Part shown: piece after piece, positions 6,084-63,932 of the stretch
How positions within the stretch are numbered: the stretch's first letter is position 1
Layout of the letters: the number at the start of each line of letters is the position of its first letter
NCBI GenBank assembly: GCA_036401335.1
Contig: DASWVC010000033.1
Coordinates: 291 to 64,290 of the forward strand
Reading direction: 5' to 3'
DNA from: Chthoniobacterales bacterium
GTDB lineage: Bacteria > Verrucomicrobiota > Verrucomicrobiia > Chthoniobacterales > JAFAMB01
DNA length: 64,000 bases
Notes under the pieces: generated by a model
The model's input: the letters and a program-made list of their open reading frames with translations, nothing else
Database searches by the model: none
Told to the model about the DNA's origin: nothing
Translations under genes and position numbers: made by a program

Positions 6084-7077
6084 TACAAAATTGCACCTTG
6101 CGGATAATATGAGGATTGATCTCGTGCTTGATTGATTCGCAAGCCGCGCGGATCGCATTCTTGATCGCGAGCGGAGAACTTGCGCCATGCGCGATGATGC
6201 AGATGCCGTTTACCCCCAGCAAAGGCATCCCTCCGTACTCTTCATAATTCGTTTTTTTGCGAATGGTACGGAACGCTCCTTCCGCAAGTTTGGCCCCGAG
6301 CATTCGAACCGGGGTTCGAACAAGTTCATGCTTTAACCAGGTGAAGATGGCATGGGCGATGGCTTCTGAGGTCTTCAGAACGACGTTGCCCGTGAACCCG
6401 TCGCACACGACCACTTCCGCCGGGTGTTCAAACAGGTCATGGCCTTCAATGTTGCCTCGGAAATTTAACCCGCTGCCCTTAAGCAATTTGAATGCTTCCT
6501 TGGTAACGTCATTTCCTTTCATGTCCTCTTCCCCGATCGACATCAACGCCACCGACGGGTTCTTGTAACCGAGCACGAATTCGGAGAAGACAGCGCCCAT
6601 GATGGCGAATTGCAAAAGGTTTTCTGCGGTAGAATCAGGATTCGCGCCCGCGTCGATCAGTACGAATACCTTGGTCTCCGTGGGCAACAAAACCGCGACG
6701 GCAGGCCGTTCGATGCCTTTCAGCGATCGCAGTTTTAAAACCGAAGCGGCCACAGCTGCGCCGGTGTGACCGGCCGACACCACGGCCTGCGCGGCGTTAT
6801 TCTTAACCAGGTCAACCGCGCGGGAGATGGACGCATCCCGCTTTTGCCGGATCGCTTTAGCCGCTGACTCCCGCATGTTGACCACCTCTGACGCGTGGAA
6901 AATTTCGAGCCGGCTGTCTTGAAACTGGAGGCGTTTCAATTCGGTCCCCACCGTGATCGCGTCGCCCACCAAAAACAATTTTTCCAGGTAGCTGTATTCT
7001 TTAAGAGCCAGTACCGCTCCCTCGACAGTGTTGCGGGGCGCGAAATCCCCGCCCATGGCGTCCAAAGCTATCCTCAT
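6046..7077 (-). CDS. plsX: Phosphate acyltransferase PlsX
   Basis: 343 aa, starting MRIALDAMGGDFAP, with SAGHTGA. Canonical position between rpmF and fabH. Confidence 0.95.
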   Translation of the reverse strand: MRIALDAMGGDFAPRNTVEGAVLALKEYSYLEKLFLVGDAITVGTELKRLQFQDSRLEIFHASEVVNMRESAAKAIRQKRDASISRAVDLVKNNAAQAVVSAGHTGAAVAASVLKLRSLKGIERPAVAVLLPTETKVFVLIDAGANPDSTAENLLQFAIMGAVFSEFVLGYKNPSVALMSIGEEDMKGNDVTKEAFKLLKGSGLNFRGNIEGHDLFEHPAEVVVCDGFTGNVVLKTSEAIAHAIFTWLKHELVRTPVRMLGAKLAEGAFRTIRKKTNYEEYGGMPLLGVNGICIIAHGASSPLAIKNAIRAACESIKHEINPHIIRKVQFCNEKFNTATTPVQ

Positions 7078-30012: not shown

Positions 30013-30876
30013 TTAAATAAAGCGGTTCAAGATTACTTCTAACTTTTTCACTGTACCATCAGGCCAAAATTTGCGCGGCGTTACCAATGCAGTGTCCAAC
30101 GCGCAATGCTCCGGCCAGGTAGGTTCCGTCGGAATCCGCTCCACGACGCTTCGCAGGATGCGACGCGCAGCTTCAGCGTTGGCCATCAGGTGCTCAAGGA
30201 TGGCTTGCGCACTCACTGGTTCAACGTGAGTTTTCCAACCGTCGAAGTCGGTGACGAAGCTCATGCTGGCAAATGCGATTTCGGCCTCGCGCGCCAGCTT
30301 GGCTTCCGGGGCGCAGGTCATGCCGATCACCGCAAACCCCTGGCGACGGTAAAACTCCGACTCAGCCCGGGTGGAGAACGCCGGGCCGTCCATGTTCACA
30401 TACGTGCCTCCGTTGTGCGCCGTGCAACCAAGCGCAGCCGCTTCCTCGGCCAGGATCCGCCGCAGCTGCGGACTGACCGGGTCGGCAAAGCTGACGTGGG
30501 CAACGATGCCCGCGCCAAAAAACGTGTGGTCACCACGCTGGCTTGTGCGATCAAAAAATTGGTCCGGCAGCACCAGATGACGTGGTTCATACCGGTCCTG
30601 CAAACTGCCCACCGCCCCAACGCTAATAATCCAGCGCACGCCAACGGAGCGCAATGCGTAAAGGTTGGCCCGGTGGTTCAGTTCGGTCGGCAAGATACGG
30701 TGACCCCGGCCGTGGCGCGGTAGAAAGAACACGGTCCGGTCCTGGAATCGGCCTTCCACCAGCTCATCGGAGGGTGACCCGAAAGGGGTCCCGACCGCGA
30801 GAGACCTCGGGTTTTCCAAACCCTCGATCTGGTAGAGCCCGCTGCCTCCAATGATCCCGATGGCGTTTTCCGGCAT
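30013..30876 (-). CDS. mtnP: S-methyl-5'-thioadenosine phosphorylase
   Basis: Begins MPENAIGIIGGSGLY, with FLPRHGRGHRILP and GMTCAPEAKLAREAE. Start at ATG 30876. Confidence 0.9.
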   Translation of the reverse strand: MPENAIGIIGGSGLYQIEGLENPRSLAVGTPFGSPSDELVEGRFQDRTVFFLPRHGRGHRILPTELNHRANLYALRSVGVRWIISVGAVGSLQDRYEPRHLVLPDQFFDRTSQRGDHTFFGAGIVAHVSFADPVSPQLRRILAEEAAALGCTAHNGGTYVNMDGPAFSTRAESEFYRRQGFAVIGMTCAPEAKLAREAEIAFASMSFVTDFDGWKTHVEPVSAQAILEHLMANAEAARRILRSVVERIPTEPTWPEHCALDTALVTPRKFWPDGTVKKLEVILNRFI

Positions 30877-31022
30877 GCCCGAGCATCTTCCGAGAGATCT
30901 GGAAAAACGCAACGGTCACCGTGCGCGGCGGCGGAAATTGATGAACCGTACCAATGCTACGAATGCCACCGCGGTAACAAACGGAACCAGTCGGATCAAG
31001 GCTGCCACGGCATCTCCGGCGG

Positions 31023-31047
31023 AAAAGCGCAGGCGCGGCTTTTGTTA
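31023..31047. terminator. Possible bidirectional intrinsic terminator
   Basis: AAAAGCGC-AGGC-GCGGCTTTT hairpin (8 bp with one bulge). A-tract and T-tract flanks give a U-run in either direction. It lies downstream of the transporter remnant and upstream of mtnP. Confidence 0.4.
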
Positions 31048-31187
31048 ACCATACACCGGTGGCACCAAGACAAGGGTTCTTGGGCCCTCAATGGGCACCG
31101 GCTCGAGCGGCGCTCCGGCAGGGCGGTGAGTCCTTTCGCCGCGTCCACGCGCCGAGACGAGGGCCTTTCGGGCCCAAAAACCCTTGT

Positions 31188-31412
31188 CTATAGTGCCCAT
31201 TGCCCCGGCGCCTTCTTGCCGCCGCCGTGCATCACCAGGTCGGCCGCCAGAATAAGCCCACCGCCGACCACGAGGGACAACGAAAAAGTCTCGTCCACCT
31301 ACCTGATGCCAGCAAGGCGGGAAAGAACAGGGTAAACAGCGAAGCAAATAAAGGCTCAAAGGTGTAGATCACGCCCGCTTCAACCGCGCTGGCCGGTTCA
31401 GAAATAAATAAA
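31188..31412 (-). pseudogene. 3' remnant of a DMT/EamA-family transporter gene (5'-truncated, one apparent frameshift)
   Basis: Minus-strand translation gives ...ISEPASAVEAGVIYTFEPLFASLFTLFFPALLAS, then after a frame change VDETFSLSLVVGGGLILAADLVMHGGGKK...stop. This is the typical last two helices of an EamA repeat. The frame closes with TGA where the AT-rich DNA begins. Confidence 0.4.
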
Positions 31413-31771
31413 ACATTTTTAGGATTTTTGAATAGCTGTCACTAATAATTAGTCCGGAAAACAAGCAAAAGGGGGTATGCTTCAGGCAACGCGGCCGTTC
31501 AATCAACCTGCACATGCTTCGCATGGCAGCGATGCCGTGAACCAGACCCGAGAGGAGAGAATAATCGTGAAAAAACTTTAGGGTATCCATTCAGACCCGA
31601 ATGAGAATGCCATAATAACAGGAAAATCTATGGGAGAAGGATTTTTGACGTATTTGGCTGCCGGTTCACCCGAACCGGAGTTGCCTCAGCTGGGGCGCGG
31701 CCGTGCCAAGGGAGGGTTGTTTTGCTTGGGATTGGGGGCCAGACCCGGTCGAACGGTCCGGCCTGCTTAAC

Positions 31772-34700
31772 ATGAACCCTCTTTCCCACGAATCATCGGC
31801 CTCTCCCCGTGAGAGAACCGTTCCTCTGACGGAGTCGCAGAAGGGGCTTTACACGCTGTGCGCGATGGACCCGGGTGCCTCCCGGGCCTATAACGAATCC
31901 TTAACGTGCCGTCTGCGCGGGCCGTACAACCACGCGGCCATGGAAGCTGCATTCCAGGTTTTGGCCGACACGCATGAGGCTTTGCGGGCGCGGGTTGATC
32001 CCGATGGAGAATCTCAAACCATTGCGCGCTCAGTGCACTTTCCGGTGCCTTTGGGTGACCTGACAGCGCTGCCGGGCGAAACCCGGGCGGCGGAGACGGC
32101 AAGGCTGTTGCACGAATTTTCCCAGGTCCTTTTCGATCCCGCAAAGCCACCGCTTTTCCGAGCCATGGTGGTGAAGCAAGACGAGGACGTTCACCTGCTC
32201 ACGGTAACGCATGGAGCGATCTACGGAAACGGTCCGTCCCGCAAGAACATCGTTGAGCAGGCGCTGGACGTTTACGCAGCCAGGGACGGTCGCGTGCCTC
32301 CGATGCAACTGTCGGAGTACGTGGCGCGGCGTGCATTGGATGAGAATGATCCGCGGCACGAGGCATTCTGGACCCACGAGTTTCCGGATGCCCCGGTCCC
32401 GCTGGAGTTGCCCTCGGACTTCCCACGGCCGCCGGCCCCGTCGTACCGCGGTGAGCGTGCCTGGAGAACGGTGGATAAACAGACCACCGCTGCCCTCCGG
32501 CAAGTTGCGTCGGCCCACCAATGTTCCTTGTTCGCATTGGTCCTGACCACCTGGCAGGTGTTGCTGCACCGTCTCTCCGGCCAGGATGACTTGGTGGTGG
32601 GCGTCCCTTCCGACAGCAGGCTCCGGTCCGCGCACCCGGGCGGACCGGCGTTGATCGCAAATACCACCAACCTGCTGCCGCTACGAAGCCGCTTCAACGC
32701 CGGAATGCGTTTTTCGGAGCAACTGGAACGGACCAGGCAATTGGTCGCCGGTGCGATCGAGCACCAAGAATATTTTTTCGGCCGTATCCTGGATCGGCTG
32801 AACCTGGTGCGGGACCCGGCAAGATCGCCCCTTTTTTCTGTAGCCTTGAATTTTCAAAAGGCTTTTCGATTTGCCCCGGCAGGCGCTCTGGAGGCAGAAC
32901 CGCTAAGGCACGAATACCCTTACCAGGCGGCCAGGAACTCCGCCGCTTTTGACCTTTTTCTCCATGTCACGGACCAGGGATCGGCCCTCGAGCTGCACGC
33001 TGATTTCTGCTCCGACCTTTTTCTGCCGGAAACGGTCGAGCGGTGGCTGAAACACCTGTGCGCGCTGTTTGAGAGCGTAGTGGCGGACCCGGGCGGTCAG
33101 TGCCAGGCACTGCCGATCCTCACCTCCGCGGAGCGAACCTGCCTGCTGCAAGGTTGGAACGAGACGCACCGCGATTACCCCACCGACATTTTTCTGCATC
33201 AATTCGTCGAGCGGCAGGTTGCACGGACCCCGGACGGCGTCGCCGTGGTCTATGAAGGCGATCTCCTGACGTACGGCGAACTCAACGCCCGGGCCAACCG
33301 AATAGCGCACCGGTTGCAGGCGCTGGGCATTGCTCCGGGAGCGTTGGTGGGCCTCCTGGCCGAGCGGTCGCCGGAAATGGTGATCGGGATCCTGGCGATC
33401 TTGAAAGCCGGTGGAGCTTACGTGCCGCTGGAGCCGAATTACCCGGAGGAGCGTTTGCATTTCCTCTTGCAAGACGCGCAATCTTCCGTGGTGCTGCTCC
33501 AACGACGTTACCGGCCCAAGGTGGCAGGGTTTCAGGGGCTGGTAGTCGAGTTGGAAGCGGATTTCACCACCGAAGGGGACGCCAACCCGGTCAGCGGCGT
33601 GGGGCGGGGAGACGCCGCCTACGTGATTTACACGTCCGGATCTACTGGAAAACCCAAAGGCGTTCTGAACTCGCACGGCGGGCTGGCGAACTGGTTGTTC
33701 TGGATGCAGGAGACTTTTCCGATGGGATCCGGGGACACGATGCTGTTCAAAGCCCCGTTCACCTTTGATGTCTCGGTCCGCGAGGTGTTCATGCCTTTGG
33801 CGGTTGGCGGGTGCATGGTGGTCGCGCGGCCCGGGTTGCATGGAGACAGCCGGCACCTGGTCGACCTCACTACCCGTCATGGCGTGACCATCCTGCATTT
33901 TGTGCCGCCGATGCTGGCCGCGTTCCTTGAGGACCGTGACGTCCGGCGGTGCTCCTCCCTTCGCCTGGTCATGTGCAGCGGCGATGCGCTTTCGTACGAT
34001 TTACAGGAGCGTTTTTTCGACGTTTTCCCCGGCCTTGAGCTCCACAACATGTGGGGCGCGACCGAGCACGCCCCGGAGTCGACCCACTGGCGGTGCGTGC
34101 CCGGACGTCGGAACGGGATCGTCGCCGTTGGCCGCCCGGGTGCGAACACGCAGCTGTACATCCTGGACCGAGCTTTCCAACCGGTCCCCATCGGGGTAAC
34201 GGGGGAAGCTTACCTCGGCGGGGTGCAGACCGCGTTGGGCTACCTGGGCCGCCCCGAGTTGACGGCCCAGAAATTCCTTCCGAACCCATACCACCCGGGC
34301 ACGCTGTACCGAACCGGCGATCTCGGCCGTTTTCGACCCGACGGGGTGATGGAGTTCATGGGCCGGATTGACTTCCAGGTCAAACTGCGCGGGTTCCGCG
34401 TCGAGCTGGGCGAGATAGAGGCGGTCCTCCTCAAGCACGCTGGGATCCGCGAATGCGTCGCGGCTGTGCGGGGCGCGCCTTCGGACCCGGCCAAACGCCT
34501 GGTCGCCTACCTCGTGGGGGATCCAGCTCCAGTGGACAGCCTGCGGCGGCACGCGGCGCTCAGTTTGCCGGAATACATGGTGCCGTCGGCGTTTGTCTTC
34601 CTGGATCGGCTTCCCGTAACCGCGAACGGCAAACTGGATCGGTCAGCGCTTCCCGAGCCCGCCATGGAGGTGCGGGTGGCCAGGGAGCCGAGGGATGCAA

Positions 34701-35800
34701 CGGAAGCACAGCTGATTGCAATCTGGGAGAAGGTACTGGGCCGGTCGCCGGTAGGGGTGACCGACAACTTCTTTGACCTCGGGGGTAATTCCCTTCTTGC
34801 CTTGAAAGCATTTAGCTTGATCCGGGAAGTCGTGGGGGTGAACCTGCCGCTGGCGACGTTGTTTCAGGCACCGAACGTCGAAAGGTTGGCGGCCAAAGTG
34901 CGGGAAACGGCTGCAGACCAGGAATGGGAGCCGCTGGTGGCAATCCAGTTGCAGGGCAGCCGTCCGCCTTTCTTTGCGGTGCATGGCCGAAATGGCAACG
35001 TCCTTTTCTACCGTAAGCTTTCCGAGCTGCTGGGGTCCCAGCAACCCTTTTATGGGCTGCAATCCCAGGGACTGGACGGCAAACCGATGCTCCGCTCCAC
35101 CGTAGAAGAAATCGGTGAGTACTACTTGGAGAAGATCCGTGCGGTGCAACCGCAGGGTCCCTACCTGCTCGGCGGCTATTCGTTCGGGGCGGTGGCAGCT
35201 TACGAGATCGCCCGCCGCCTGCGAGAGCAGGGGGAGGAGATTGCGCTCCTGGCAATGTTCGACATTTACAACCCGGCACGACCGCCCCGGCTGCTTTCCT
35301 ACACAGAAAAGTTCCGGCATCGCATCATGGATGCGGAAGCACGAACGCCTAACCGGGTCCTGCAGTTCCTCGCCCGCCGGACCAAAGGCCGGGTAAGTGA
35401 ACGGTTGCTAAAGTGGAATGAGCTTTCCCGTCGGTTACTGTTGCAAACGGTGAAACGGACCGAGGACAACTCGCCGGAACTCGTGGATCTTCACGTCCAG
35501 ATGGTTCACGAACGCGCGTTTGTCTCCTACCGGCCCAGGCCATTCAATGGAAAAATCACCCTTTTCCGGGCGCTCATGGTGCCGGATGGGTATGAGTATG
35601 AGGCAGAAATGGGGTGGACCGGGTTGGCCGCTCAAGGCATCGAGATTCACGACGTTCCCGGCGATCATTTCACCATCTTCCACGAGGAAAATGTGCCGAT
35701 GCTGGCCGAAAAACTTTCGGCCTGCATCGAGGCGGCTCTAACAAGCATTGGTTCGGGTTCAAGCCCGTCCATGCACCCGGCACCTTATCCCAGCCGATAG
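31772..35800 (+). CDS. Single-module nonribosomal peptide synthetase, C-A-T-TE
   Basis: Start is ATG 31772 (or GTG 31703). See the domain sub-features below for motifs. Residue numbers are counted from the GTG at 31703. Confidence 0.9.
31820..33112 (+). other. NRPS condensation domain (degenerate C3 motif)
   Basis: C1 [12 protein letters not shown]2 [10 protein letters not shown]5 [13 protein letters not shown]7 RDPARSPLF. The HHxxxDG position reads THGAIYG (nt 32207-32227). Confidence 0.8.
33185..34657 (+). other. NRPS adenylation domain
   Basis: A2 [13 protein letters not shown]3 [12 protein letters not shown]4 [10 protein letters not shown]5 NMWGATEH, A7 YRTGDLGR, A8 [21 protein letters not shown]10 NGKLDR. 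Confidence 0.9.
34694..34906 (+). other. NRPS thiolation (PCP) domain
   Basis: [13 protein letters not shown]; the putative phosphopantetheinyl Ser codon is at 34790-34792. Confidence 0.85.
34955..35722 (+). other. NRPS thioesterase domain
   Basis: PFFAVHG, nucleophile elbow GGYSFG (nt 35174-35188), candidate Asp in LAMFD and His in VPGDHFTIF. Confidence 0.85.
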
Positions 35801-36003
35801 ACGATGCGGCCCTTGGTGAGGTCGTAAGGCGACATCTCCAAACGCACGCGGTCACCAAGGTTAAGCCGGATGAAGCGTTTGCGCATCTTGCCGGAAATGT
35901 GAGCCAAAATGACGTGTTTGTTCCCAAGCTCAACCCGGAACATGGTCCCGGGCAGTACTGCAACGATTTTGCCTTCAGTTACTATTTCGGATTCAGCGGG
36001 CAT
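35785..36003 (-). CDS. infA: Translation initiation factor IF-1
   Basis: 72 aa: ...[62 protein letters not shown]. Confidence 0.95.
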
Positions 36004-36104
36004 AAAGCAGACTAAAAACCTTCATTGACGGCCGGTTTACCCTGCAGGCGGACTTTTCGCCGGGAACGCTAAACCATGGTTCCCAGGTCAAGCCGCCGCT
36101 GGCA

Positions 36105-36272
36105 TCAGCGACCTGCGCGTGAGAACGACCGGGCGGCGCGCGCACCACCGGATCGATCTTCTTTCGACCGGGCCACATTGACGGTAAGCGCGCGACCGGC
36201 AAGCTGCCCCAAGACCTTTTCAAGGTTCTTGGTGCCGGTATGAAACGACAAATTTCCTAAATAAATTTTCAT
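36105..36272 (-). CDS. RRM-derived mini-protein (internal deletion removes RNP1); possibly a pseudogene
   Basis: MKIYLGNLSFHTGTKNLEKVLGQLAG-RALTVNVARSKEDR aligns with both ends of the full RRM protein at 2868-3209 but lacks about 45 central residues, including KSRGFGFV. Confidence 0.45.
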   Translation of the reverse strand: MKIYLGNLSFHTGTKNLEKVLGQLAGRALTVNVARSKEDRSGGARAARSFSRAGR

Positions 36273-36497
36273 GGATTGAGGTGATTCGATTGCCAGCTCC
36301 ACAGCCGTTCCCGAAAACCGGATTTCAAATCACCACCGAGAAATAACCTCACCTGACGATCCACCGCGCTTCGAATTCGACCAACCGGAAACCAGCATCG
36401 TTCGTCCAACCGAAAACGCAAGAAAAGCTTTCCGTTCACCAGCGGAGCCGCCGACGCGGGAAGAAGCGCCGCGGCTCTAAAGCCAGAACCTGCGCGT

Positions 36498-37580
36498 TCA
36501 GAATTTGAGCTCGAGTTGCCCGGCCATTACCCTTCGGAACGCGCCGGCGTTCAAGCGTGGCGCGTCGTGTGCCAATCCGGCCCGACGGGAACTTACTTCA
36601 AACATCCGGTGCAGCTGCTGGGCCAGGGGGCCGTTCCCCCGCATCCGCTCGCCGAACTCACTCACGTTAAGTTTGCCGTCCCGCATTGACCGGATCTGGT
36701 CGAGGACGCGGTTTTTACGCTCGGGAAAATGCTTTTCGAGCCATTGAGTGAACAGGGGCGCCACCGCAAGCGGCAGCCGAACCATCGTCATGCCGGCAAA
36801 GGTGGCGCCCGCCGCGGCCGCGGCCGCGAGGAGGGCGGGGATTTCGTGATCATTTAGCCCCGGCATTACCGGCGCCAGGTTAATCCCGACCGGAATCCCG
36901 CTGGCGCGCAACCGTTCCACAGCACGGAGCCGGGCTGCAGGTGCCGAAGCTCGCGGCTCGAGTTTTCGCGCAAGGTCAAGGTCGAGGGTGGTCAGCGAAA
37001 GGGTGACCGCAACGGCCTTGTGGGCGGCCAGTTCCGTCAGCAGATCGGCATCCCGCGTGACCAGCTGATTCTTGGTGATGACAAAGACCGGGTTACGGAA
37101 ACGCGCCAATACCTCCAAGCAGGCACGGGTGAGGCCCAGCTTGGCCTCAACTGGCTGGTAGCAATCGGTTACGCCGCTCAAGGTGAGCGTCTGAGGCCTC
37201 CAGGAAGGTGCGCTTAGCTCTGCCGCAAGCAGGTCCGGCGCCCGCCTTTTCACGAGGATTTTGCTTTCAAAGTCCAGGCCCGCCGAGAACCCGAGGAATT
37301 CATGGGTTGGCCGGGCATAACAATAGGCGCAGCCGTGTTCGCAACCCCGGTAAGGGTTCACGCTTACCTCGAACCCGACATCCGGGCTTTGGTTCCGCGC
37401 AATGATTGTCCGGGCATCGTCTTCCAGGATTTCCGTGACAACCTGGTCCCGCTGAGTCGAAGGTTCGTCGGACGGATCCGCTTCGTAATGCAGCTTGGCA
37501 AAGCGGTTGACCGGATTGCCGGTGGCTCCCCGCCCGCGTGGCCGGCCTGACGGTTCAGGATCGAACGTACACCGGCTCAT
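36498..37580 (-). CDS. Radical SAM protein, PA0069 / SplB-like (COG1533) family
   Basis: Contains NRFAKLHYE and VNPYRGCEHGCAYCYARPTHEFLGF (CxxxCxxC cluster). Start at ATG 37580 (MSRCTFDP); the 122-codon upstream extension overlaps the next gene. Confidence 0.88.
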   Translation of the reverse strand: MSRCTFDPEPSGRPRGRGATGNPVNRFAKLHYEADPSDEPSTQRDQVVTEILEDDARTIIARNQSPDVGFEVSVNPYRGCEHGCAYCYARPTHEFLGFSAGLDFESKILVKRRAPDLLAAELSAPSWRPQTLTLSGVTDCYQPVEAKLGLTRACLEVLARFRNPVFVITKNQLVTRDADLLTELAAHKAVAVTLSLTTLDLDLARKLEPRASAPAARLRAVERLRASGIPVGINLAPVMPGLNDHEIPALLAAAAAAGATFAGMTMVRLPLAVAPLFTQWLEKHFPERKNRVLDQIRSMRDGKLNVSEFGERMRGNGPLAQQLHRMFEVSSRRAGLAHDAPRLNAGAFRRVMAGQLELKF

Positions 37581-38133
37581 TTCCTGCTTTCCATTTGATG
37601 CTGCAGCCGGTACTGGCACGTTGGTCGGGAGAAACGGCGTGCCCGGCCAGGACCGCATCCACGGCTGCCCGAAGGTCCCGGCCGGTTGGCGGCTGAGCGT
37701 TTCCCGGCCGGCTGTCATCCAGTTGGCCCCGGTACACGAGGCGGAGGCTGCCATCAAACAGGAAAAAATCCGGCGTGCACACCGCCCGGTAAGCTTTGGC
37801 CACGTCCTGCGGTTCGTCGTAAAGCACCGGAAACGGCAAATCGCGGGCGAACTCAGCCAGTCTGTCCGGTGCGTCCTCAGGGTATTGCTGGGCATCATTG
37901 GCACTGATGCCCGCGATGCGCACACCCTTCGGCAGGTAATCGGCACCGAAACGGGCCAGCTCAGGTTTGACCTGGATGACGTAAGGGCAATGGCGGCACA
38001 GGAAAACCACGAGTAGCGCCCGGCCGCCGCTCAGGTCCGACAAGGAAACAAGTTCACCGCTGGTGACCTCCGGAAGTTGAAAGTTCGGTGCGGTCCGGCC
38101 AAGCTCAGCACCTGTGGATAGGGTTGCCGTCAT
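37555..38133 (-). CDS. Thioredoxin-fold (AhpC/TSA-like) thiol-disulfide oxidoreductase
   Basis: APNFQLPEV...ALLVVFLCRHCPYV (CxxC). Start at ATG 38133. Confidence 0.85.
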   Translation of the reverse strand: MTATLSTGAELGRTAPNFQLPEVTSGELVSLSDLSGGRALLVVFLCRHCPYVIQVKPELARFGADYLPKGVRIAGISANDAQQYPEDAPDRLAEFARDLPFPVLYDEPQDVAKAYRAVCTPDFFLFDGSLRLVYRGQLDDSRPGNAQPPTGRDLRAAVDAVLAGHAVSPDQRASTGCSIKWKAGNEPVYVRS

Positions 38134-38178: not shown

Positions 38179-39105
38179 TTAACCCGCGTCTGCCCCAAGT
38201 GGGACATGCCAGGAGGCCGGCACTTCTAGAGGGCGGGCCACCATGATGCCGCCGAATTTGGCGTAGCGGTAAAGGTACTGGTGTAAAGGGACGTCAATGA
38301 TAACGCTCCGGGCATCTTTGGAGGCGTGCATGAAGTGGAGCGCCCCATTTGTATCGCGCAGGGCAAGGCCGACATGTTCGGTGAACCCATCCCGGAAACT
38401 GCTGCTGATGCAGATCACGTCTCCGTCGCGAAGCAGGGGTTCAACCGCCGCCACACGCGCTTTTGGGATGTGGTAGATGGTGCGGGCCGAAAGGTTCGAT
38501 TCGATCCGGCGGATGGCCGGCACCAGCTCGGGGTTGTTCCGCAGGTAACGTGAGCGGCGCCACGTGGTCGACATCTCGTCCTCGTAATGACCCGTCATCG
38601 GCACACCGCCCAATGACCTCGTCAGGTCCTTGACGAGCCCCCGGCGTTCGTTGTCGGCCAGCCAGTCTTCCAGGTGGTGAAGGCGGGAGGTAAAGGACCC
38701 GGTGCAACGGCCCCCGCGGTAACGGTCCAGTTCGATCAGGGCCAGCAGGTCATTCGGAGTGTACGGTGGGTTTTTTATTTCGAGCATGCGTGCAAACCCG
38801 AGCGAGACCTCGAAGTAGGTCCAGCAGTCCATGCCGAGAAAATCAACCGAGGGTGCCTCGGTGTGGTCATCGATTTCCAGGGTGAAGTTGCGGTAAGGCG
38901 TCCCTTGTAAGGCCCTGCCGACGGCGGCCGTGCGTTCTCCCAAGGGCAGCACCCGCCAGTTTTCCTGGTCCGCCCGCCGGACCAGACCGGCAAACACGGA
39001 ATCACCTCGGAACACGGTGGCAAACGGCAGGGGCGCGGCGAAGAGGAAAGTTGACGGAATCAGGAGGCACGACAACGCGGACCAGACGGCTAAGATCAAA
39101 CGCAT
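38179..39105 (-). CDS. Secreted DUF1460 protein (amidase-like fold)
   Basis: Signal peptide MRLILAVWSALSCLLIPSTFLFAAP, with GMDCWTYFEVSLGFARM and HVGLALRDTNGALHFMHAS. Start at 39105 (alternative 39153). The upper 200 codons of the 509-aa ORF are antisense to the yqeY-like gene and are rejected. Confidence 0.8.
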   Translation of the reverse strand: MRLILAVWSALSCLLIPSTFLFAAPLPFATVFRGDSVFAGLVRRADQENWRVLPLGERTAAVGRALQGTPYRNFTLEIDDHTEAPSVDFLGMDCWTYFEVSLGFARMLEIKNPPYTPNDLLALIELDRYRGGRCTGSFTSRLHHLEDWLADNERRGLVKDLTRSLGGVPMTGHYEDEMSTTWRRSRYLRNNPELVPAIRRIESNLSARTIYHIPKARVAAVEPLLRDGDVICISSSFRDGFTEHVGLALRDTNGALHFMHASKDARSVIIDVPLHQYLYRYAKFGGIMVARPLEVPASWHVPLGADAG

Positions 39106-39270
39106 GGCTTGAGCGGTCGAAGGCAAGAGTGAACGCGAGTCACTTCGCTTCATCGGCAGAACGGCGGCGCGCTTTAACCCGCGTTCGCCTGATCTTTCTG
39201 GTAAGGTTAGGGGCTGCCCCGGCTCCCAGCCCGCCTTGCGAAAGGCCCGAAGTCGCCTACACTCGTCCAC

Positions 39271-39723
39271 ATGACCATCCAGGAGCGGGTCGACCACGAC
39301 CTCAAGGAAGCGATGCGCGCCAGGGATGCCGGCCGGCTGTCGGTGTTGCGCCTGGCCAAAGCGGCGTTGATGAACGCCGCCATCGAAAAGCATGGGGCAG
39401 CCGGCAAACTTGCCGAGGCTGAGGCGTTGGCGGTGCTCCGCAAACAAGTCAAACAACGTCACGATGCCATCGCCAGCTTTGAGCAGGGCGGACGTCCTGA
39501 GTTGGCGGAAAAGGAGAAGAAGGAACTTGATTATTTGGCCGAATACCTGCCCACCCCCTTGAGCGAAGCACAGGTCGAGGAGTTGGTCCGAAGCGTGATC
39601 AATCGGGTAGGCGCTACCTCCAAGGCGCAATTGGGTCAGGTCATGAAAGCCGCTTCGGAACAGGCGGCGGGCCGTGCGGACGGTAAGGCGCTCAACCGGG
39701 TGGCGCAAAAGTTGTTAGGCTGA
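39271..39723 (+). CDS. GatB/YqeY domain protein
   Basis: 150 aa, starting MTIQERVDHDLKEAMRARD, with RLAKAA, KQRHDAIASFEQGGRPELAEKEKKEL and LGQVMK. Confidence 0.9.
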   Translation: MTIQERVDHDLKEAMRARDAGRLSVLRLAKAALMNAAIEKHGAAGKLAEAEALAVLRKQVKQRHDAIASFEQGGRPELAEKEKKELDYLAEYLPTPLSEAQVEELVRSVINRVGATSKAQLGQVMKAASEQAAGRADGKALNRVAQKLLG

Positions 39724-50482: not shown

Positions 50483-51624
50483 TATACCAGCTTGCAGGTT
50501 AAACTGGTAAAATCGGCGTGACCCTGGGCGATGGTTGGGTGAAGTTGGCGCCCATGGCACGGACGCGCCGCAAACTGGATGAACAAGGGGAAACGGAACT
50601 GCTCTTGGAGCGGCTGCGCCGCCAGCGGGCCGGCTGGCAACGCGAACGGCTTTTGGCCGTCAAATGGGGCTTGGAAGGCGAACTCACCCTTGAGCAGATC
50701 GCCGCGCAACTGGGCCGAGCCCGTTCGAGCATCCAGCAGTGGTTTGATGCCTTTCGCTGCAGCGGGGTGGAGGGGCTGCTGTGCTTAAAGCGGGGCAAGG
50801 GGCCGCCCAGTCGCCTCACGCCGGCCATGGCGCGGGCCCTGAGCCGAAAGCTCCAAAGCGGTGAGTGCCGCCGGGCCGTCGACGCCCACCGTTGGCTGGT
50901 GAAGACCTATGGGTTGGAAGTGCGCCTGGCGTCGGTTTACCACTATTTAAAAGGCTTAGGGGCGCGGTTGAAAGTGCCGCGCCCCTGCCACCGCCGCGGC
51001 GTTCAAAGTTACGCTGGGTCAAAAGCTCGCCGCCTTAAACTGCCAGCCCGTCGCCCGGTGCGGCTCTGGGTGGCCGATGAAAGGCGCTACGGCTTGCAGC
51101 CCGTGACCCGGCGGGTCTGGGCTTTACGAGGCCAGCGGACCGTGGTTCCCGTCCAGCCGGGCTATGAAGGGGGCTACGTCTTTGGCGCCCTCCAAGTCGG
51201 GGGCGCGGGTGCGGCGGAGTTCTTTTACTGCCCCACGGCCAACCAGGAATCCAGCCGGCTCTTTTTGCACCAAGTGGCCACATGCGACCCCGAGGCGAAC
51301 CACGTCGTGATTTGGGACGGGGCGGGGTTCCACCCCGGCGACGGGGCACCGAAGCTGCCGCCTGGGGTACGCCTGCTGGCCTTCCCGCCGTACCGCCCGG
51401 AGTTGAACCCGGTCGAAAAGCTGTGGGACCAGCTTAAAGACCGCCTCTGCAACCGACCCTTCCACAGCCTGCGGGCGCTCGAAGCCGTGATGACGGACTT
51501 CCTGCGCGAGGTGTGGCAAGACGCCCGGCGGGTCGGGAATCTGATTGGCGACGGCTGGCTGCGGGCGCAAAGCAAACGCTTCCTTCGCCGGAATTTTGCC
51601 GGTATGACGGCCTAAATGGTATTA
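50483..51624 (+). mobile_element. IS630-family insertion sequence (about 1.14 kb)
   Basis: A single transposase ORF flanked by imperfect terminal inverted repeats (left TATACCAGCTTGCAGGTTAAACTGGTAAAATCGGCG; right, in reverse complement, AATACCATTTAGGCCGTCATACCGGCAAAATTCCGGCG). The ends lie next to TA dinucleotides. Exact ends are uncertain by a few bp. Confidence 0.7.
50554..51615 (+). CDS. IS630-family DDE transposase
   Basis: N-terminal HTH (LTLEQIAAQLGRARSSIQQW). DDE triad candidates are WVADERRYG, VVIWDGAGFH and PELNPVEKLW, with D-to-E spacing of about 30 residues. Start at ATG 50554 (or GTG 50518). Confidence 0.88.
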   Translation: MARTRRKLDEQGETELLLERLRRQRAGWQRERLLAVKWGLEGELTLEQIAAQLGRARSSIQQWFDAFRCSGVEGLLCLKRGKGPPSRLTPAMARALSRKLQSGECRRAVDAHRWLVKTYGLEVRLASVYHYLKGLGARLKVPRPCHRRGVQSYAGSKARRLKLPARRPVRLWVADERRYGLQPVTRRVWALRGQRTVVPVQPGYEGGYVFGALQVGGAGAAEFFYCPTANQESSRLFLHQVATCDPEANHVVIWDGAGFHPGDGAPKLPPGVRLLAFPPYRPELNPVEKLWDQLKDRLCNRPFHSLRALEAVMTDFLREVWQDARRVGNLIGDGWLRAQSKRFLRRNFAGMTA

Positions 51625-57904: not shown

Positions 57905-60900
57905 TCATTCTTTCCGTACCGCCCGGAGAAGGGCTGGAAGGACCAGCAACACGAGCGGCAGTTGAAAACAGAGCCCGGAGATGATCGCGATGGCCAGCGG
58001 CCGAAGCATGGCCGCACCTTCTCCCAAACCGAGCGCCAACGGCGCCAAGGCCAGGATCGCGGCGATTGTCGTCATCGCGATCGGGCGCATCCGGTTGAGG
58101 CCGGCCACGATGAGACGGTCGGGGCCCGACTGCTCCCGAAGTTCAGAATAGTAAAAGATCGAAACCTCCGTGACGATTCCGACGACCATGGTCATTCCCA
58201 TGCGGGAGGTGATGTTAAATTCCGTCCCGGTAAGCCATAACCCGACGTAAACGGCCGCCACAGCCAGAAAGGCAATGCCTAGCATGGCAAGCGCCACCCG
58301 GAAACTTTCATAAAGGAACACCAGCAGCAGGAAGGTCAGGATCACGGCCGCCGCCAGCACCACCGTGAGGCCCTGAAACGCAATCTGCTGCTGCTCGTAC
58401 AACCCACCCAAGGCATAGGGAACCGTGGCGGGCACCACCCCCGGCTGTGCGAGCACGCGTTTCACCTCGGTAACCGTGGAACCGAGGTCCCGCCCGCTAA
58501 TCCGGGCCGTGACCGCCACCATGCGTTTCAAGTCCTCCCGTTTGATCTCCGGTTGGCCGCTCGTCGCAGTGAGCTTCGCAACGCGAGCCAGCGGGAAAAG
58601 GTGTCCATCGGGGGCCCGGATGAGCAAACGCTCCACTTGAGGCGTGATTTGGCGATCGTGCTCCGGGACCCACACCCTCACCCCGATCAGCTTGGGTGGC
58701 TGCAGGACCCGGGTCGCCACATCCCCGGACAAATAACTCGTTAGCACCTTGGTGATGGCATCCGGGTCCATGCCTTCGAGCACGGCCTTTCTGCGGTCGA
58801 CCTCGACGCTGAGGGCGTCGCCCGCGGGAGTGATTCCGTTCTTAACTTCCACCACGCCCCGCACGTGCGAAACGGCTTCTGCCACTTTGGGAGCGAGGGT
58901 CTGCAAGCCTTGTTCATCGTCGGAAAATAACTTGATTTCGATCGGTTGCGGCACGCTCGTCAGGTCGCCAATAAGGTCTTCCATCACTTGGGCCGTTTCC
59001 ACTTGAAGGCTAGGGATGGTCTGCCCGATTTGCTGGCGGACGTCGTCCATGACCGCTTCTACTCCCCGGCGCGGCAGCGGACGGAGGCGCACGAAGAAAT
59101 CGCCGCTGTTTGTTTCGTTGAGGTCACCACCTAATCCAAGCCCTGTTCGGCGTGAGTAGGTTTGCGTCTCCGGCAGCTTTCGCAAAATGCCTTCGACCTG
59201 GCGCAGCAGCCGATCGGTCTCGGCGAGGGAGGTGCCCGGAAGCGAATGGTAATCAAGAATGAATCCGCCTTCATCCATGGCCGGCATGAACCCGGAAGAA
59301 ACGTGTTGGAAGGCAAAAATTCCAAGCACTGCCGTGGGCAAGCAGATCAGCAGGATGAAGGCGGGCCGACGAACGAAAAACCCGGCCAGCCGCCGGTACC
59401 CTCGATCCAGCCGTCCCGCGTGAGGCTGAGGATGCGTGCGGGACCGAACGCCACGGTGCAGGCAACGGGCAGCAACCGCGGGCAGCACGAGCCAGGAGAT
59501 CAGCAGCGAGAGGATCAGGCTGGCTGCCATGGTGAGTGATAGGGCCTTGAAAAACGCGCCCGTCACCCCCGACAAAAAGGCCAGCGGAGCAAAAATGATG
59601 ACCGTGGCGGTGGAGGAGGCCAGCAACGGCTCAGAGAACTCACGGGCCGCCGTCAACACGGAACTGCCCTCGCCTTCTTGCTGGCGGCGCACAATGTGCT
59701 CTGCCATGACGATCGCATCGTCAATGATCAGGCCCACAGCGGCCGCGATGCCGCCCAACGTCATAATGTTTAAGCTCATCTTGAGCACGCCGAGGAGCAG
59801 GATCGTCGAACAGAGGACCGCGGGAACCGTGACGGCGGCGATGGCGGTGATCCGCCAGTCACGCAGAAACCCAAGCAGCACCAGGATCGCAAGTCCGATG
59901 CCAATCAGGACCGCGTCCCGAGTGCTGGTGGCGGAAGAAGTGATCAGCTGCCCTTGGTCGTACCAATCGGCGACGCGGACGTCAGCCGGGATGGATGTTC
60001 CCAACGCGCTCAGCTTGCGCTTTATGCCGGCGGCAATCTGCACCGTGTTGCCGCCGGGTTGCTGGTAAACCTGGAAGAGCACGGCGTCGTGGGCATCCGC
60101 CGTCACGCGGGTCCACCGTGGTTCGGTGCTGCGTTCAATCGTAGCGACATCGCCCAGGAAAAGCGTGCCGGAGGAACCGGAGGCAATCACCACCTTCGGC
60201 AGGTCCGCAAAGGATTTCAGGCGGGTGTCAGAAATGACGAGATAGAGTTTCTCGGACTCCTCAAGTTTGCCTACGGCTGAAAGAACGTTCTGGGCCGCGA
60301 GCACCGCGGACACGTCCGTGATGGTGAGCTTCAAGGCCTGCAGCTTCGGCAGGTCAACGACGACCCGGTATTCTTCGGTCTGTCCGCCTTGCACCCCAAC
60401 TTGCGCAACGCCCGGCACCGTGGCCAGGGCAGGCCGCACCGTGTAGCTGGCGAGGTCGCGCAGTTCTTGCAGGGGACGGTGATCGGAAGTGAGGCTGTAG
60501 GCAATCACCGGGAACACGGTGGGGTCCATGCGCAACACGTTGAAGGTGGTGCCCGGCGGCAGGGCGGAGAGCACCTTGTTGATCTGGGACTCCACCTGGA
60601 GCATGGCCGCCACCATGTCTTCGCCCCAATCGAAATTCACATTGACCTCTGCGCTTCCCCGAGTCGTGTTTGAACGAACGCCGCGAACTCCGGGAATGGC
60701 GCGAACGGCTTCCTCGACGGGAATTGTTGCCTCGATGGCCATGCGTTCCGCCGGCCGGTCGCCGGCATCAAGGCTGATGCGGACGCGCGGAAAGTCCACC
60801 TGCGGAAACAGGCTCACCGGCAACTGCCATGCCGTGACGGCCCCCGCCAAGGCGAGGACCGTCACCAGACTAACCAGAAACCGGGCGTGGCGGGAGGCCC

Positions 60901-60916
60901 ATTCAACGGGATTCAT
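57905..60916 (-). CDS. RND efflux transporter inner-membrane subunit (AcrB/CzcA superfamily)
   Basis: About 1000 aa with a 12-TM, two-large-loop architecture. Starts MNPVEWASRHARFLVSLV at ATG 60916. Confidence 0.92.
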   Translation of the reverse strand: MNPVEWASRHARFLVSLVTVLALAGAVTAWQLPVSLFPQVDFPRVRISLDAGDRPAERMAIEATIPVEEAVRAIPGVRGVRSNTTRGSAEVNVNFDWGEDMVAAMLQVESQINKVLSALPPGTTFNVLRMDPTVFPVIAYSLTSDHRPLQELRDLASYTVRPALATVPGVAQVGVQGGQTEEYRVVVDLPKLQALKLTITDVSAVLAAQNVLSAVGKLEESEKLYLVISDTRLKSFADLPKVVIASGSSGTLFLGDVATIERSTEPRWTRVTADAHDAVLFQVYQQPGGNTVQIAAGIKRKLSALGTSIPADVRVADWYDQGQLITSSATSTRDAVLIGIGLAILVLLGFLRDWRITAIAAVTVPAVLCSTILLLGVLKMSLNIMTLGGIAAAVGLIIDDAIVMAEHIVRRQQEGEGSSVLTAAREFSEPLLASSTATVIIFAPLAFLSGVTGAFFKALSLTMAASLILSLLISWLVLPAVAARCLHRGVRSRTHPQPHAGRLDRGYRRLAGFFVRRPAFILLICLPTAVLGIFAFQHVSSGFMPAMDEGGFILDYHSLPGTSLAETDRLLRQVEGILRKLPETQTYSRRTGLGLGGDLNETNSGDFFVRLRPLPRRGVEAVMDDVRQQIGQTIPSLQVETAQVMEDLIGDLTSVPQPIEIKLFSDDEQGLQTLAPKVAEAVSHVRGVVEVKNGITPAGDALSVEVDRRKAVLEGMDPDAITKVLTSYLSGDVATRVLQPPKLIGVRVWVPEHDRQITPQVERLLIRAPDGHLFPLARVAKLTATSGQPEIKREDLKRMVAVTARISGRDLGSTVTEVKRVLAQPGVVPATVPYALGGLYEQQQIAFQGLTVVLAAAVILTFLLLVFLYESFRVALAMLGIAFLAVAAVYVGLWLTGTEFNITSRMGMTMVVGIVTEVSIFYYSELREQSGPDRLIVAGLNRMRPIAMTTIAAILALAPLALGLGEGAAMLRPLAIAIISGLCFQLPLVLLVLPALLRAVRKE

Positions 60917-62033
60917 CGCCCGTGGCGGCCTCCACCCGCATGCCGTCCGTGAGTTCGCGATGGCCTTGAACCACCACGGCATCTCCGGAGCGGATCGTGC
61001 CATCCGTCAGCTCGATCTCATCGTCGTTCTGCAGCCCAAGATGCACCGGGATCCGCTGCGCCTTTCCTTCCCGAACGACGAAGAGGACCGGTTCGCCTTG
61101 GTCCTCAAAGACGGCCCGTCGGGGTACCACGACCCCTTCGTGCGCAGCCACCTCGATATTTCCTTGCACGTAAGCGTTCAGCAGCAGACTGCCTGGTTGG
61201 GGAAGGGCCACGTAGACGTCCACCAACCGCGTGGTCGCGTTGACTTGTCCGGAGACCAGTTTCACCGTGCCTTCCCACGTCGCCGCCGCAGGGTCATCGG
61301 AGGGTCCCAGGGCCACCTTCTCGCCCGGCGCGACCCGCCCGGCGGCGCCCGGTTCAACGCCCAACCGGACTTGCAGGTCGTCACCAGACGCGACTTCCAC
61401 GATGGCGGTGCCTGCGGGCGCCAACTGGCCGTCTTGCACGCCGATTCGGGCCACCAAACCATCGACGTCCGCGATCGCTTGCTCGGATGGATGCACCCCC
61501 TCATCCCGCAGGCTGGCCAATTGCAGGTCGGCGTCCGTCGCGCCCTTTTCGGCTGCGCCGAGCTCCTGGACGGTTGCCAGCTTAAGGTCAAAGCGCCGCC
61601 GCGTCTGATCAAGGTCCCGATGGGCCATCCGGGCGGCGTTTTCGGCTTGGTGCAGTTGGAGCAAGGTCGCGGCGCTGGCGTCGACCTCGACCAGGGGTTG
61701 ACCCCGTTTGACCGGTTCACCCGGAGCCACCAGGACGTGGCGCACCCGCGTTTCGAAAGCGCGGGTAACGGTGTGGGTGCTGCCCGGTTCCGCCGTCACG
61801 GAGCCGAAGGCCGTGCACGTTTCCGCGATCCTTTTTCGCGAGGCAACAGCGACGACGACTTTGGCCACTGGTTCAGCCTCGTGGTCCTCCGGGTGTTCCG
61901 CTCCGGGGTGCGGCGCACAACCCAGCAGCAGAAGTGCAAACCCGGCATGAAACGCACGGCGGAACACAGGCCACCCGGGCTGCCGCCCGCCCCGGAACCT
62001 CACGCACCGCCCTCCTGATCCGGGAGGAAGCAA
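60903..62033 (-). CDS. RND efflux periplasmic adaptor (membrane fusion protein), probable lipoprotein
   Basis: Lipobox LLLGC with HlyD-like hairpin and barrel segments. The start is uncertain (TTG 62033 or GTG about 62003, overlapping the upstream stop). Confidence 0.85.
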   Translation of the reverse strand: MLPPGSGGRCVRFRGGRQPGWPVFRRAFHAGFALLLLGCAPHPGAEHPEDHEAEPVAKVVVAVASRKRIAETCTAFGSVTAEPGSTHTVTRAFETRVRHVLVAPGEPVKRGQPLVEVDASAATLLQLHQAENAARMAHRDLDQTRRRFDLKLATVQELGAAEKGATDADLQLASLRDEGVHPSEQAIADVDGLVARIGVQDGQLAPAGTAIVEVASGDDLQVRLGVEPGAAGRVAPGEKVALGPSDDPAAATWEGTVKLVSGQVNATTRLVDVYVALPQPGSLLLNAYVQGNIEVAAHEGVVVPRRAVFEDQGEPVLFVVREGKAQRIPVHLGLQNDDEIELTDGTIRSGDAVVVQGHRELTDGMRVEAATGDESR

Positions 62034-63370: not shown

Positions 63371-63374
63371 ACGG

Positions 63375-63932
63375 TTACTTCCATCGTAAACTCTCCGCCA
63401 CGCGCTGCCGCAAGGCACGGTGATCCGAGGCGGTTGGCGACCACACGCTCAAAATCTGCAGCTGGCGAGGCTGCAGAAAGATGTACACGCTGCACTCCAG
63501 GGAAGGAGGCGCGTCGATCGCCGGCCCTGGATTGCTGCGGAACTTGAGAAGGACCGCACGGCCGGCCGGCAGGTCAACTTCTTTCATCCGCCTCAGTCTT
63601 GCGGGCTTAGCTCCCCCCAAACTCTTTACTTCGGCGCCCGCCACCCCCAGCGCATCCAGATTTTCTGGATGGGCGCGCAGCGCGACCGTTCTAACCCGAA
63701 TGCCCGCCACCTGCCCTCCAAAGGTTACCACGCCGGGGCTTTCGCTGCACAACCAACCCTTCGGCGCTTCGAGCGAGAAGCCTTTGACTTCACGCCGCTC
63801 ATAATCCGTGGGTTCTTCCAACCAGACGTGCGCGGCCGTGGTCGTTCCGGTGACCCGCGCCTCCGGAACCCGGCCTGGAGCCAGCTCGTCAGCTCCCGCA
63901 AAGGCCGGCAGGCAAAACCCCACAAAAGCCAA
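63375..63932 (-). CDS. Hypothetical exported protein at the head of the RND operon (start possibly beyond 63932)
   Basis: The ORF abuts the OMF gene. A signal-like LAFVGFCLPAFAGA is present. The frame remains open upstream to the window end, and no family was recognised. Confidence 0.45.
   Translation of the reverse strand: MAFVGFCLPAFAGADELAPGRVPEARVTGTTTAAHVWLEEPTDYERREVKGFSLEAPKGWLCSESPGVVTFGGQVAGIRVRTVALRAHPENLDALGVAGAEVKSLGGAKPARLRRMKEVDLPAGRAVLLKFRSNPGPAIDAPPSLECSVYIFLQPRQLQILSVWSPTASDHRALRQRVAESLRWK

Follow-up and report, generated by a model that had tools for sequence, protein, structure and literature searches.

The 64-kb stretch of DNA analysed here (hereafter the window), which belongs to contig DASWVC010000033.1 of the Chthoniobacterales bacterium assembly GCA_036401335.1, carries a gene for a nonribosomal peptide synthetase (NRPS) in which the condensation domain is degenerate. 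The gene occupies 31772..35800 on the forward strand, and its assignment is based on the open reading frame (ORF), the Pfam matches, identity to a database protein (P0001) and codon usage. The ORF may begin at a GTG at 31703 or at an ATG at 31772 and ends at 35800; the product translated from the ATG has 1342 amino acids (aa) and is 100% identical over its full length to P0001, a record named 'MAG TPA: amino acid adenylation domain-containing protein [Chthoniobacterales bacterium]'. Four domains were identified by Pfam on the single polypeptide in the order condensation (C), adenylation (A), thiolation (T) and thioesterase (TE), all of them scoring far beyond the family cut-offs. An earlier description of the DNA made from its letters alone (the sequence-only reading) had proposed a C-A-T-TE module of about 1340 aa, standing as an orphan in housekeeping DNA with mtnP and infA as neighbours. 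The Pfam order, the length and the surroundings agree with this, and no other NRPS or polyketide synthase (PKS) gene, MbtH gene or phosphopantetheinyl transferase (PPTase) gene was found in the whole 64 kb. The module had also been called complete, which is true of the four domains and of the essential residues of the A, T and TE domains, but not of the C domain, in which the catalytic HHxxxDG motif is destroyed. The architecture is therefore written as C*-A-T-TE, where C* denotes the degenerate C domain.

No stop codon or frameshift occurs across the 1342 codons. Codon usage of the gene is typical of the host (relative synonymous codon usage, r=0.92), and its GC content and third-position GC content (GC3) are likewise host-like. 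An open frame of 4 kb with host-typical codons argues for a gene that has been resident for long and maintained.

Active-site residues of the four domains

The condensation-like domain spans aa 14-458 (31811..33145, forward strand, as are all parts of the gene given below; Pfam Condensation, E 9e-61). Among the proteins of solved structure, its closest relatives by sequence are C domains of the LCL elongation type (Txo2_C1, E 1e-46; Txo1_C2, 3e-46; TycC6, 5e-41), DhbF C2 is also matched (E 2e-26), and the C domains of the lipo-initiation type are far weaker matches (CDA-C1, E 1.1e-9; RzmA, E 4e-9). The structural ranking obtained with Foldseek agrees with the sequence, placing the domain nearest to the LCL domains and not to those of lipo-initiation.

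The position of the HHxxxDG motif is occupied by G148-A149-I-Y-G-N153-G154, with both the His residues and the Asp replaced. This degenerate motif, together with the preceding H147 (H147-G148-A149-I-Y-G-N153-G154; 32210..32233), was located with HMMER against Txo2 and Txo1, where the Txo segment M-H-H-I-V-S-D-G-W-S aligns to H147-G148-A149-I-Y-G-N153-G154-P-S, and in two MAFFT alignments (A1 and A2). Columns 148 and 149 are at least 90% His in the 28 aligned rows of alignment A2, and 146 of the 151 HHxxx?G motifs detected by regular expression in the 120 best homologues have Asp at the position marked '?'. A frameshift or an assembly error as the cause of the lost His pair was considered and rejected, since HH appears in neither of the alternative reading frames. 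The remaining core motifs of the domain are recognisable by eye in the translation. AlphaFold2 predicts a complete two-lobed fold (mean pLDDT 88.8, pTM 0.89) in which the motif has its usual strand-loop-helix surroundings, and the predicted structure matches Txo2 C1 (6p1j) in Foldseek with a TM-score of 0.85. According to this model the C domain is folded and has lost three signature residues, and it is probably inactive for condensation.

The C domain belongs to a small sub-clade, referred to here as 'GNGPS', together with P0002, P0112/L007 module 1 (both described in the next section) and P0388; these three carry HHxxxNG. No C domain of this sub-clade has a carrier domain upstream in cis: that of the window protein starts at aa 14, and that of P0112/L007 lies behind a luciferase-like (LLM) domain. 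A donor supplied in trans is therefore plausible for those members which still possess the His pair. The sequence-only reading had favoured starter-C logic, with N-acylation of one amino acid to give a lipoamino acid. This expectation is not supported, given the LCL-like character of the domain, the replacement of HH and D, the lack of any acyl-activating enzyme or acyl carrier protein (ACP) in the window and the in-cis A-T feeding seen in the nearest A-domain relatives (L008 and L011); the lack of an upstream in-cis carrier in the whole sub-clade is the one point that speaks partly for it.

The adenylation domain extends over aa 480-954 (33209..34633), as delimited by Pfam AMP-binding (aa 480-825, E 2e-86) and AMP-binding_C (aa 881-954) and by TIGR01733, the NCBIfam amino-acid-adenylation model (421 bits against a cut-off of 317). 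All the core motifs A1-A10 are readable, including Lys517. In the A4 motif FDVSVRE (aa 665-671; 33764..33784, from the translation and the pocket alignment), the Asp noticed in the sequence-only reading is indeed retained, D666 being equivalent to Asp235, and R670 occupies pocket position 239. The A5 motif is atypical, as had also been pointed out: NMWGATEH (aa 759-766) stands in place of NxYGPTE, the Tyr being changed to Trp and the Pro to Ala. It is contained in an A5 variant (34046..34078, from the translation and alignment) that defines a small clade of A domains.

The pocket positions were anchored on A4 and A5 and checked against the HMMER alignment to LgrA, and the specificity code was extracted by pairwise alignment. 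The ten residues so obtained, DVRHMSMPEK, differ from the serine code DVWHxSLxDK by the changes W239R, L322M, V330P and D331E. Among single A domains of known structure, the serine-activating Txo2 A1 comes closest (470 bits), and the serine code is still present in the relatives P0112, L007 module 1 and L006. Judged from these alignments, DVRHMSMPEK is derived from serine-type A domains (DVWHxSLxDK), and a small polar substrate resembling serine is suggested by H278 and S301, which are both kept. A code of the type DVRH[MILVF]S was not found in the searchable literature, and the earlier caution that the specificity is not assignable is borne out for DVRHMSMPEK, which has no counterpart there. 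The code is exactly the same in P0365, L010, L013, L014 and L015. That the code does not vary between proteins only 62-66% identical in the A domain, encoded in genomes with GC contents of 48-61%, points to selection on substrate recognition.

The thiolation (carrier) domain (aa 980-1041; 34709..34894; Pfam PP-binding, E 4.5e-14) contains the carrier serine, placed by alignment at Ser1007 in FFDLGGNSL, and the GGNSL portion matches the pattern GG(H/D/N)S(L/I). The thioesterase domain (aa 1066-1317; 34967..35722; Pfam Thioesterase, E 5.7e-25) has as its best solved relative the TE of AB3403 (E 1.3e-21, alignment full-length), to the positions of which the triad residues Ser1137 (GYSFG), Asp1164 and His1299 (PGDHF) align.

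Relatives and evolution of the individual domains

A search in a collection of 5.8 billion proteins retrieved a sole full-length close homologue, P0002 (1347 aa, C-A-T-TE, 49% identity), the gene context of which is unrelated to that in the window and the C motif of which is retained as HHxxxNG. P0112 (47% identity) is a C-A-T fragment behind the luciferase-like domain; its counterpart in L007 is a synthetase of the organisation LLM-C-A(Ser)-MT-T-sulfotransferase-C-A-T-TE (MT, methyltransferase), followed by a PPTase gene. The C domain and the T-TE of the window protein match module 1 and the terminal T-TE of the L007 synthetase with 39-52% local identity, and module 2 is about 34% identical. 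The L007 synthetase (L007:686-11859) lies on a nanopore-assembled contig with evident frameshifts, and its in-line Sulfotransfer_3 domain is uncommon in NRPSs.

A degenerate DNA pattern for N-x-W-G-A-T-E-x-A-P-E gave no matches in 185,579 GTDB species-representative genomes, and no relative was found when the GTDB species genomes were scanned with query peptides. The same pattern matched eight JGI metagenome contigs (L008-L015), all of which encode the clade A5 variant in proteins with 44-54% overall identity to the window protein. L008 and L011 encode an A-T loading module in frame ahead of this module, resulting in A-T-C-A-T-TE. The C motif of the L008-L015 type is intact (HHIIHDDWS or HHIIDDDWS) and its TE nucleophile is a cysteine (GYCIG). 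By comparison of the sequences, the in-cis loading module, an unrelated C domain and a cysteine TE set L008 and L011 apart from the window protein. The A domains of the clade are 56-66% identical to that of the window protein, contain the A5 variant or NLWGATETAPE, and have the codes DVRHMSMPEK, DVRHISLPEK or HVLHMSMPEK. Positions 235 and 239 co-vary, the second A domain of L008, L011 and L012 containing FHVSVLE with His235 and Leu239 in place of Asp235 and Arg239. An unrecognised code, DSAFRGE-EK, was read from the loading A domain of the L008-L015 relatives (e.g. L008:3-5489, L011:2-4924), and two such NRPS genes are arranged in tandem in L010 and L015.

The closest relatives differ from domain to domain. 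For the A domain they are found in the L008-L015 clade (64-66% identity; P0002 56%, P0112 53%). For the C domain they are P0112 (43%) and P0002 (39%), the L008-type C domain being no closer than a generic one (28%), and for the T-TE portion P0002 is closest (53%; L008 type 37-45%). This mosaic of identities argues that the A domain is the conserved unit, and that the C and TE partners were swapped during the history of the family.

An exhaustive protein search with the TE domain as query found many single-module proteins of 1150-1400 aa, of which 25 were examined. Many are ordinary C-A-T-TE proteins with the canonical HHxxxDG. Among the closest relatives, however, the C domain has been damaged several times. 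P0365 (1190 aa, stand-alone) matches aa 196-1325 of the window protein with 50% identity (62% in the A domain) and has the same code DVRHMSMPEK, but is without the entire N-lobe of the C domain; about 370 bp separate it from the upstream gene on its contig (L022), and tblastn found no remnant of the N-lobe there. Three other proteins with the same TE type (P0361, P0363 and P0364) start with the C-terminal lobe of the C domain only, and in a further one (P0396) the N-lobe is truncated (FFHLFSNG). P0002, with a full-length C-A-T-TE, and P0365, without the C N-lobe, are both stand-alone proteins.

The rate of change in the C and the A domains was compared in a three-sequence relative-rate count, in which P0112 served as the third sequence. 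Unique substitutions in the C domain number 80 in the window protein, 55 in P0002 and 44 in P0112, and those in the A domain 52, 52 and 62, respectively; the binomial p for the window protein against P0002 is 0.019 in C and 0.54 in A. The counts of 80 against 55 in C, but 52 against 52 in A, argue that constraint is relaxed on the C domain, and not on the A domain, in the window lineage.

Another member of the family, P0123, derives from a P0400-like NRPS by an internal deletion, which has joined the A-domain motif A6 (ARGYLNRPELTAQHF) to the beginning of the T domain with nothing in between. It was found on four metagenome contigs (loci L002-L005, e.g. L002:5938-7194), in an exopolysaccharide locus with exosortase (EpsH/EpsI), glycosyltransferase and Wzy genes.

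Proposed mode of action and alternative explanations

The account that we favour, and to which we give about an even chance, is that the protein is an orphan single-module NRPS, formerly a terminal C-A-T-TE module, which now would work as an A-T-TE enzyme on a serine-related substrate with a vestigial, structural C domain. An origin from a terminal module is suggested by the C domain and the T-TE, which resemble L007-type module 1 and terminal T-TE, and the A domain would correspond to the acceptor module of the dimodular A-T-C-A-T-TE enzymes. The A domain would adenylate one serine-related substrate and load it on the carrier domain, and the TE might release it by hydrolysis, by passing it to an external nucleophile, or through self-condensation or cyclisation. 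In this account the C domain would make no amide bond and may be retained as a rigid platform for the A core, a structural behaviour known from C-A didomains; the C domain and the A core form a static didomain platform (reviewed in PMC10510592) and the C-A interface influences A-domain activity (bioRxiv 10.1101/2021.08.23.457306). A broader proposal, possible though doubtful, is that terminal modules in uncultured soil Chthoniobacterales-like bacteria repeatedly became '(C-lobe)-A-T-TE' enzymes. The C chemistry would have been lost by point mutation, as in the window protein, or by deletion of the N-lobe, as in P0365, with a previously unrecorded A specificity (DVRHMSMPEK together with the A5 variant) being strictly selected and the TE, not the C domain, making the product from a non-standard serine-like building block.

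Several points weigh against the A-T-TE account. Plain hydrolysis of one tethered amino acid would be a futile cycle, so that useful TE chemistry has to be assumed, and a PPTase gene was not found in the 64 kb. The excess of substitutions in the C domain is modest (p about 0.02) and comes from three sequences, and P0123, an internally deleted 'T-TE' gene, represents outright decay within the family. His147, which closes the same strand, precedes the lost catalytic His by two residues. In addition, the second His is dispensable in some C domains and non-canonical motifs such as HQxxxDM can stay active (PMC11546977), and because of these two facts the domain is graded here as probably inactive and not as dead.

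The last two points, on His147 and on the second His, also favour the explanation that the C domain is still competent and that the protein is the terminal subunit of a split pathway, receiving a donor in trans (acyl-CoA, acyl-ACP, or an aminoacyl or aryl carrier protein) and releasing an N-acyl amino acid or a dipeptide through its TE. The fold of the C domain is fully kept in the AlphaFold2 model, the sub-clade to which it belongs has HHxxxNG and is never found with an upstream carrier in cis, the view of the genome covers 64-68 kb, and the C-A-T-TE proteins EntF and AB3403 are supplied with a donor by a separate A domain acting with a carrier protein (PMC10510592). This explanation is nevertheless unlikely, as H, H and D of the motif are all changed together, the C domain evolved faster in the window lineage only, P0365 has the same A-T-TE without the C N-lobe, similarity to the lipo-initiation C domains is weak (E about 1e-9), and no donor-making gene, ACP, fatty acyl-AMP ligase (FAAL) or PPTase was found in the window. 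The lack of PPTase or partner genes would also fit a relic without function, left over as the final module of a lost assembly line and in early decay, with its ORF still open and no product being made. Loss of the catalytic C motif, the orphan position in a variable slot shared with an internally deleted RRM fragment (see the next section), the decay seen elsewhere in the family (P0123 with its internal deletion on four contigs, and the N-terminally truncated copies) and the match of C and T-TE to L007 module 1 and terminal T-TE, as expected of a collapsed dimodule, all agree with a relic. Such a fate appears rather unlikely in view of the 1342 codons free of stops and frameshifts, the intact catalytic motifs of A, T and TE, the A domain that is not accelerated relative to P0002 and the pocket code kept exactly with relatives 62-66% identical in A; the host-like codon usage, moreover, points to a residence long enough for a neutral ORF of such length to have been broken.

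A degenerate C domain might also have been re-purposed as a recruiter or scaffold for a trans-acting tailoring enzyme, in the manner of the X domain of glycopeptide NRPSs, which is deficient in the His motif and recruits P450s to the carrier-bound substrate. The fold kept without its catalytic residues would suit this role, and the teicoplanin X domain is among the matches (4tx2, E 5e-22 by sequence; 4tx3, TM-score 0.78 by structure). It is a poorer match than the ordinary LCL domains, however; X domains lie between the last T domain and the TE and are accompanied by P450 genes, whereas the C-like domain of the window protein is N-terminal and Pfam detected no P450 or other tailoring enzyme in the window, and P0365 does without the N-lobe altogether. 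A recruiting role is thus very improbable.

Comparison with known systems shows both the likeness and the distance. SrfA-C, EntF, AB3403 and ObiF1 are termination modules of solved structure with the same C-A-T-TE architecture (PMC10510592). The window protein departs from a canonical condensation-competent termination module in having lost HHxxxDG and in having no donor system within the window. EntF of E. coli (PDB 5JA1/5T3D) is likewise a stand-alone C-A-T-TE protein with an A domain of the serine lineage. Its code, which we take to be DVWHFSLVDK, has H278, S301 and K517 in common with the pocket of the window protein (DVRHMSMPEK) and differs at positions 239, 322, 330 and 331. The NCBIfam EntF model aligns to aa 44-1169 with 485 bits against an equivalog cut-off of 2400, and the C domain of EntF is not among the PDB matches to the window C domain at E<=1e-5. 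EntF has an active HHxxxDG and receives 2,3-dihydroxybenzoate (DHB) from EntB, whereas the window is without entE, entB and MbtH-like genes. AB3403 (ABBFA_003403 of Acinetobacter baumannii, PDB 4ZXH/4ZXI) is also a free-standing C-A-T-TE protein, the product of which is uncharacterised; unlike the window, its cluster supplies the donor through a free-standing A domain and a carrier protein (PMC10510592). The pantetheine in AB3403 lies beside the histidine of an intact HHxxxDG, unlike the motif of the window protein, and its C domain is a distant match only (E 1.6e-17; 17% identity when the structures are aligned). Nearest to the C and A domains of the window protein among solved structures are the didomains Txo2 C1-A1 and Txo1 C2-A3 of the teixobactin synthetase (6P1J, 6OYF; construct identities from PMC8244413), which combine an LCL C domain with a serine-activating A domain. 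These come from internal or elongation positions in an assembly line of 11 modules, have the canonical HHxxxDG and NxYGPTE, and are about 30% identical to the window protein.

In working logic, the proposed enzyme would resemble the NRPS-like A-T-TE enzymes. The enzymes of this kind which dimerise aryl-alpha-keto acids, such as TdiA and RalA, make the product on the TE with no condensation step. They have no C-like domain, and their A domains lack Asp235 because they accept alpha-keto acids, whereas the window protein has both a full C-like domain and Asp235.

If the A-T-TE account is correct, the protein would be a natural NRPS termination module surviving under selection after the loss of its condensation chemistry, and would bear, for NRPS engineering, on the contribution of C domains to A domains beyond catalysis. 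In genome mining, tools of the antiSMASH type would take it for a full C-A-T-TE module, with an N-acylated product or a dipeptide as the prediction. For specificity prediction, the A clade marks an unassigned specificity in an abundant uncultured soil lineage, since the code was not found in the searchable literature and the A5 pattern has no match among the GTDB species representatives; a search of the literature for NRPSs of Udaeobacter or Chthoniobacterales likewise found nothing relevant. If the protein is a relic instead, it would exemplify ordinary decay of a secondary-metabolism gene.

Genomic setting

The gene mtnP, for S-methyl-5'-thioadenosine phosphorylase (30013..30912, reverse strand; Pfam PNP_UDP_1 and the NCBI name of an identical protein), lies upstream of the NRPS gene and is divergent from it. 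Downstream and convergent is infA (35785..36003, reverse strand; IF-1, 72 aa; Pfam eIF-1a, E 2.7e-24), which overlaps the end of the NRPS gene, stop codon included, by 16 nt; it stands alone, apart from the ribosomal-protein operons. All the gene-sized ORFs of the window were scanned against Pfam, and the matches besides the NRPS belong only to housekeeping, transport, regulatory or transposase families. Genes for SMC, ispG, rseP, dxr, cdsA, a dynamin-like GTPase and a polysaccharide deacetylase were identified upstream of the NRPS gene, and those for a radical-SAM protein, an AmiA-like amidase, yqeY, ispD, an M16 peptidase, a GntP permease and a sugar ABC transporter downstream, with further housekeeping genes, an IS630-type transposase and an RND efflux system farther out.

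No second NRPS or PKS, ACP, acyl ligase, FAAL, PPTase, MbtH or P450 was detected by Pfam in the 64-kb window. In tblastn searches of the window with the L007 PPTase, Sfp and MbtH, the best E-value was 0.09, the Sfp and MbtH queries being approximate sequences. The only ketosynthase-type gene is a FabH-like ORF (5061-6188), beside a YceD-family ORF among housekeeping genes. The L011 loading module, P0112 and the window protein served as tblastn queries for remnants of a loading module or other NRPS fragments in the window; such remnants were discounted, the best E-value outside the gene being 0.46.

The NRPS gene, infA, an RRM gene fragment and non-coding DNA make up a segment of 5.6 kb (30913..36497), delimited by synteny, in a variable slot of a conserved array of housekeeping genes. 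Three contigs found through MtnP homologues of 73-77% identity (L018, L019 and L021) have the order M16-ispD-yqeY-AmiA-(radical SAM)-[slot]-mtnP-deacetylase-dynamin-cdsA-dxr-rseP-ispG, and in none of them is an NRPS gene or infA present at the slot, which is empty or holds an unrelated gene. The segment is therefore regarded as lineage-specific. On the contig with the closest MtnP (84% identity), a co-directional gene ends 137 nt upstream. No direct or inverted repeats of note were found flanking the segment. Recent horizontal transfer or a mobile island was rejected as its origin, since there are no such repeats and no adjacent tRNA or integrase, and GC content and codon usage are host-like. 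A functional link of the NRPS to the deacetylase, the AmiA-like amidase or the radical-SAM protein was similarly dismissed, as the relatives without the NRPS keep the same gene order. The IS630-type transposase (50518..51615, forward strand; DDE_3 and HTH domains) lies about 15 kb downstream of the NRPS gene. There is no evidence of a mobile element shared with the L008 locus, its DDE_3 transposase and that of the window being 24% identical.

The RRM gene fragment is an ORF of 65 aa (36105..36302, reverse strand) that matches an RRM protein encoded at 2868-3209 of the window (blastp, 37% identity over 38 residues, E 6e-7). By eye, its RNP2-like start (KIYLGNLSF) and its C-terminal stretch are kept while the middle is gone, and it has no Pfam match; from this comparison, it is probably an internally deleted copy, i.e. 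a pseudogene fragment. Between mtnP and the NRPS gene, inside the lineage-specific segment, lies a near-perfect hairpin (31058..31200, forward strand) with arms of 20 nt (31068-31087 and 31170-31189) that are 95% complementary and nested in further pairing. It occurs once in the window and folds as RNA with an energy of -81 kcal/mol (z-score -4.6 relative to shuffled sequences). No Rfam family matched the window at the gathering threshold, and none matched 30900-31800, which includes the hairpin, at E<=1; a promoter and terminator scan gave nothing above the shuffled expectation.

Genes for the RND efflux pump, an AcrB-family protein of 1032 aa, and for an outer-membrane factor (OEP) occupy 57905-63418 on the reverse strand, 22 kb from the NRPS gene; they are the only export-type genes of the window besides the sugar and ABC transporters, and no link to the NRPS was seen. 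The boundaries of two of the neighbouring ORFs appear to need revision. The longest ORF for the AmiA-like protein (38179-39708, reverse strand, 509 aa) is over-extended, its first 200 or so codons being antisense to yqeY, the true gene for which lies at 39271-39723 on the forward strand (Pfam YqeY, E 2.5e-44). In the radical-SAM ORF (36498-37946), homology to the relatives begins at about codon 137.

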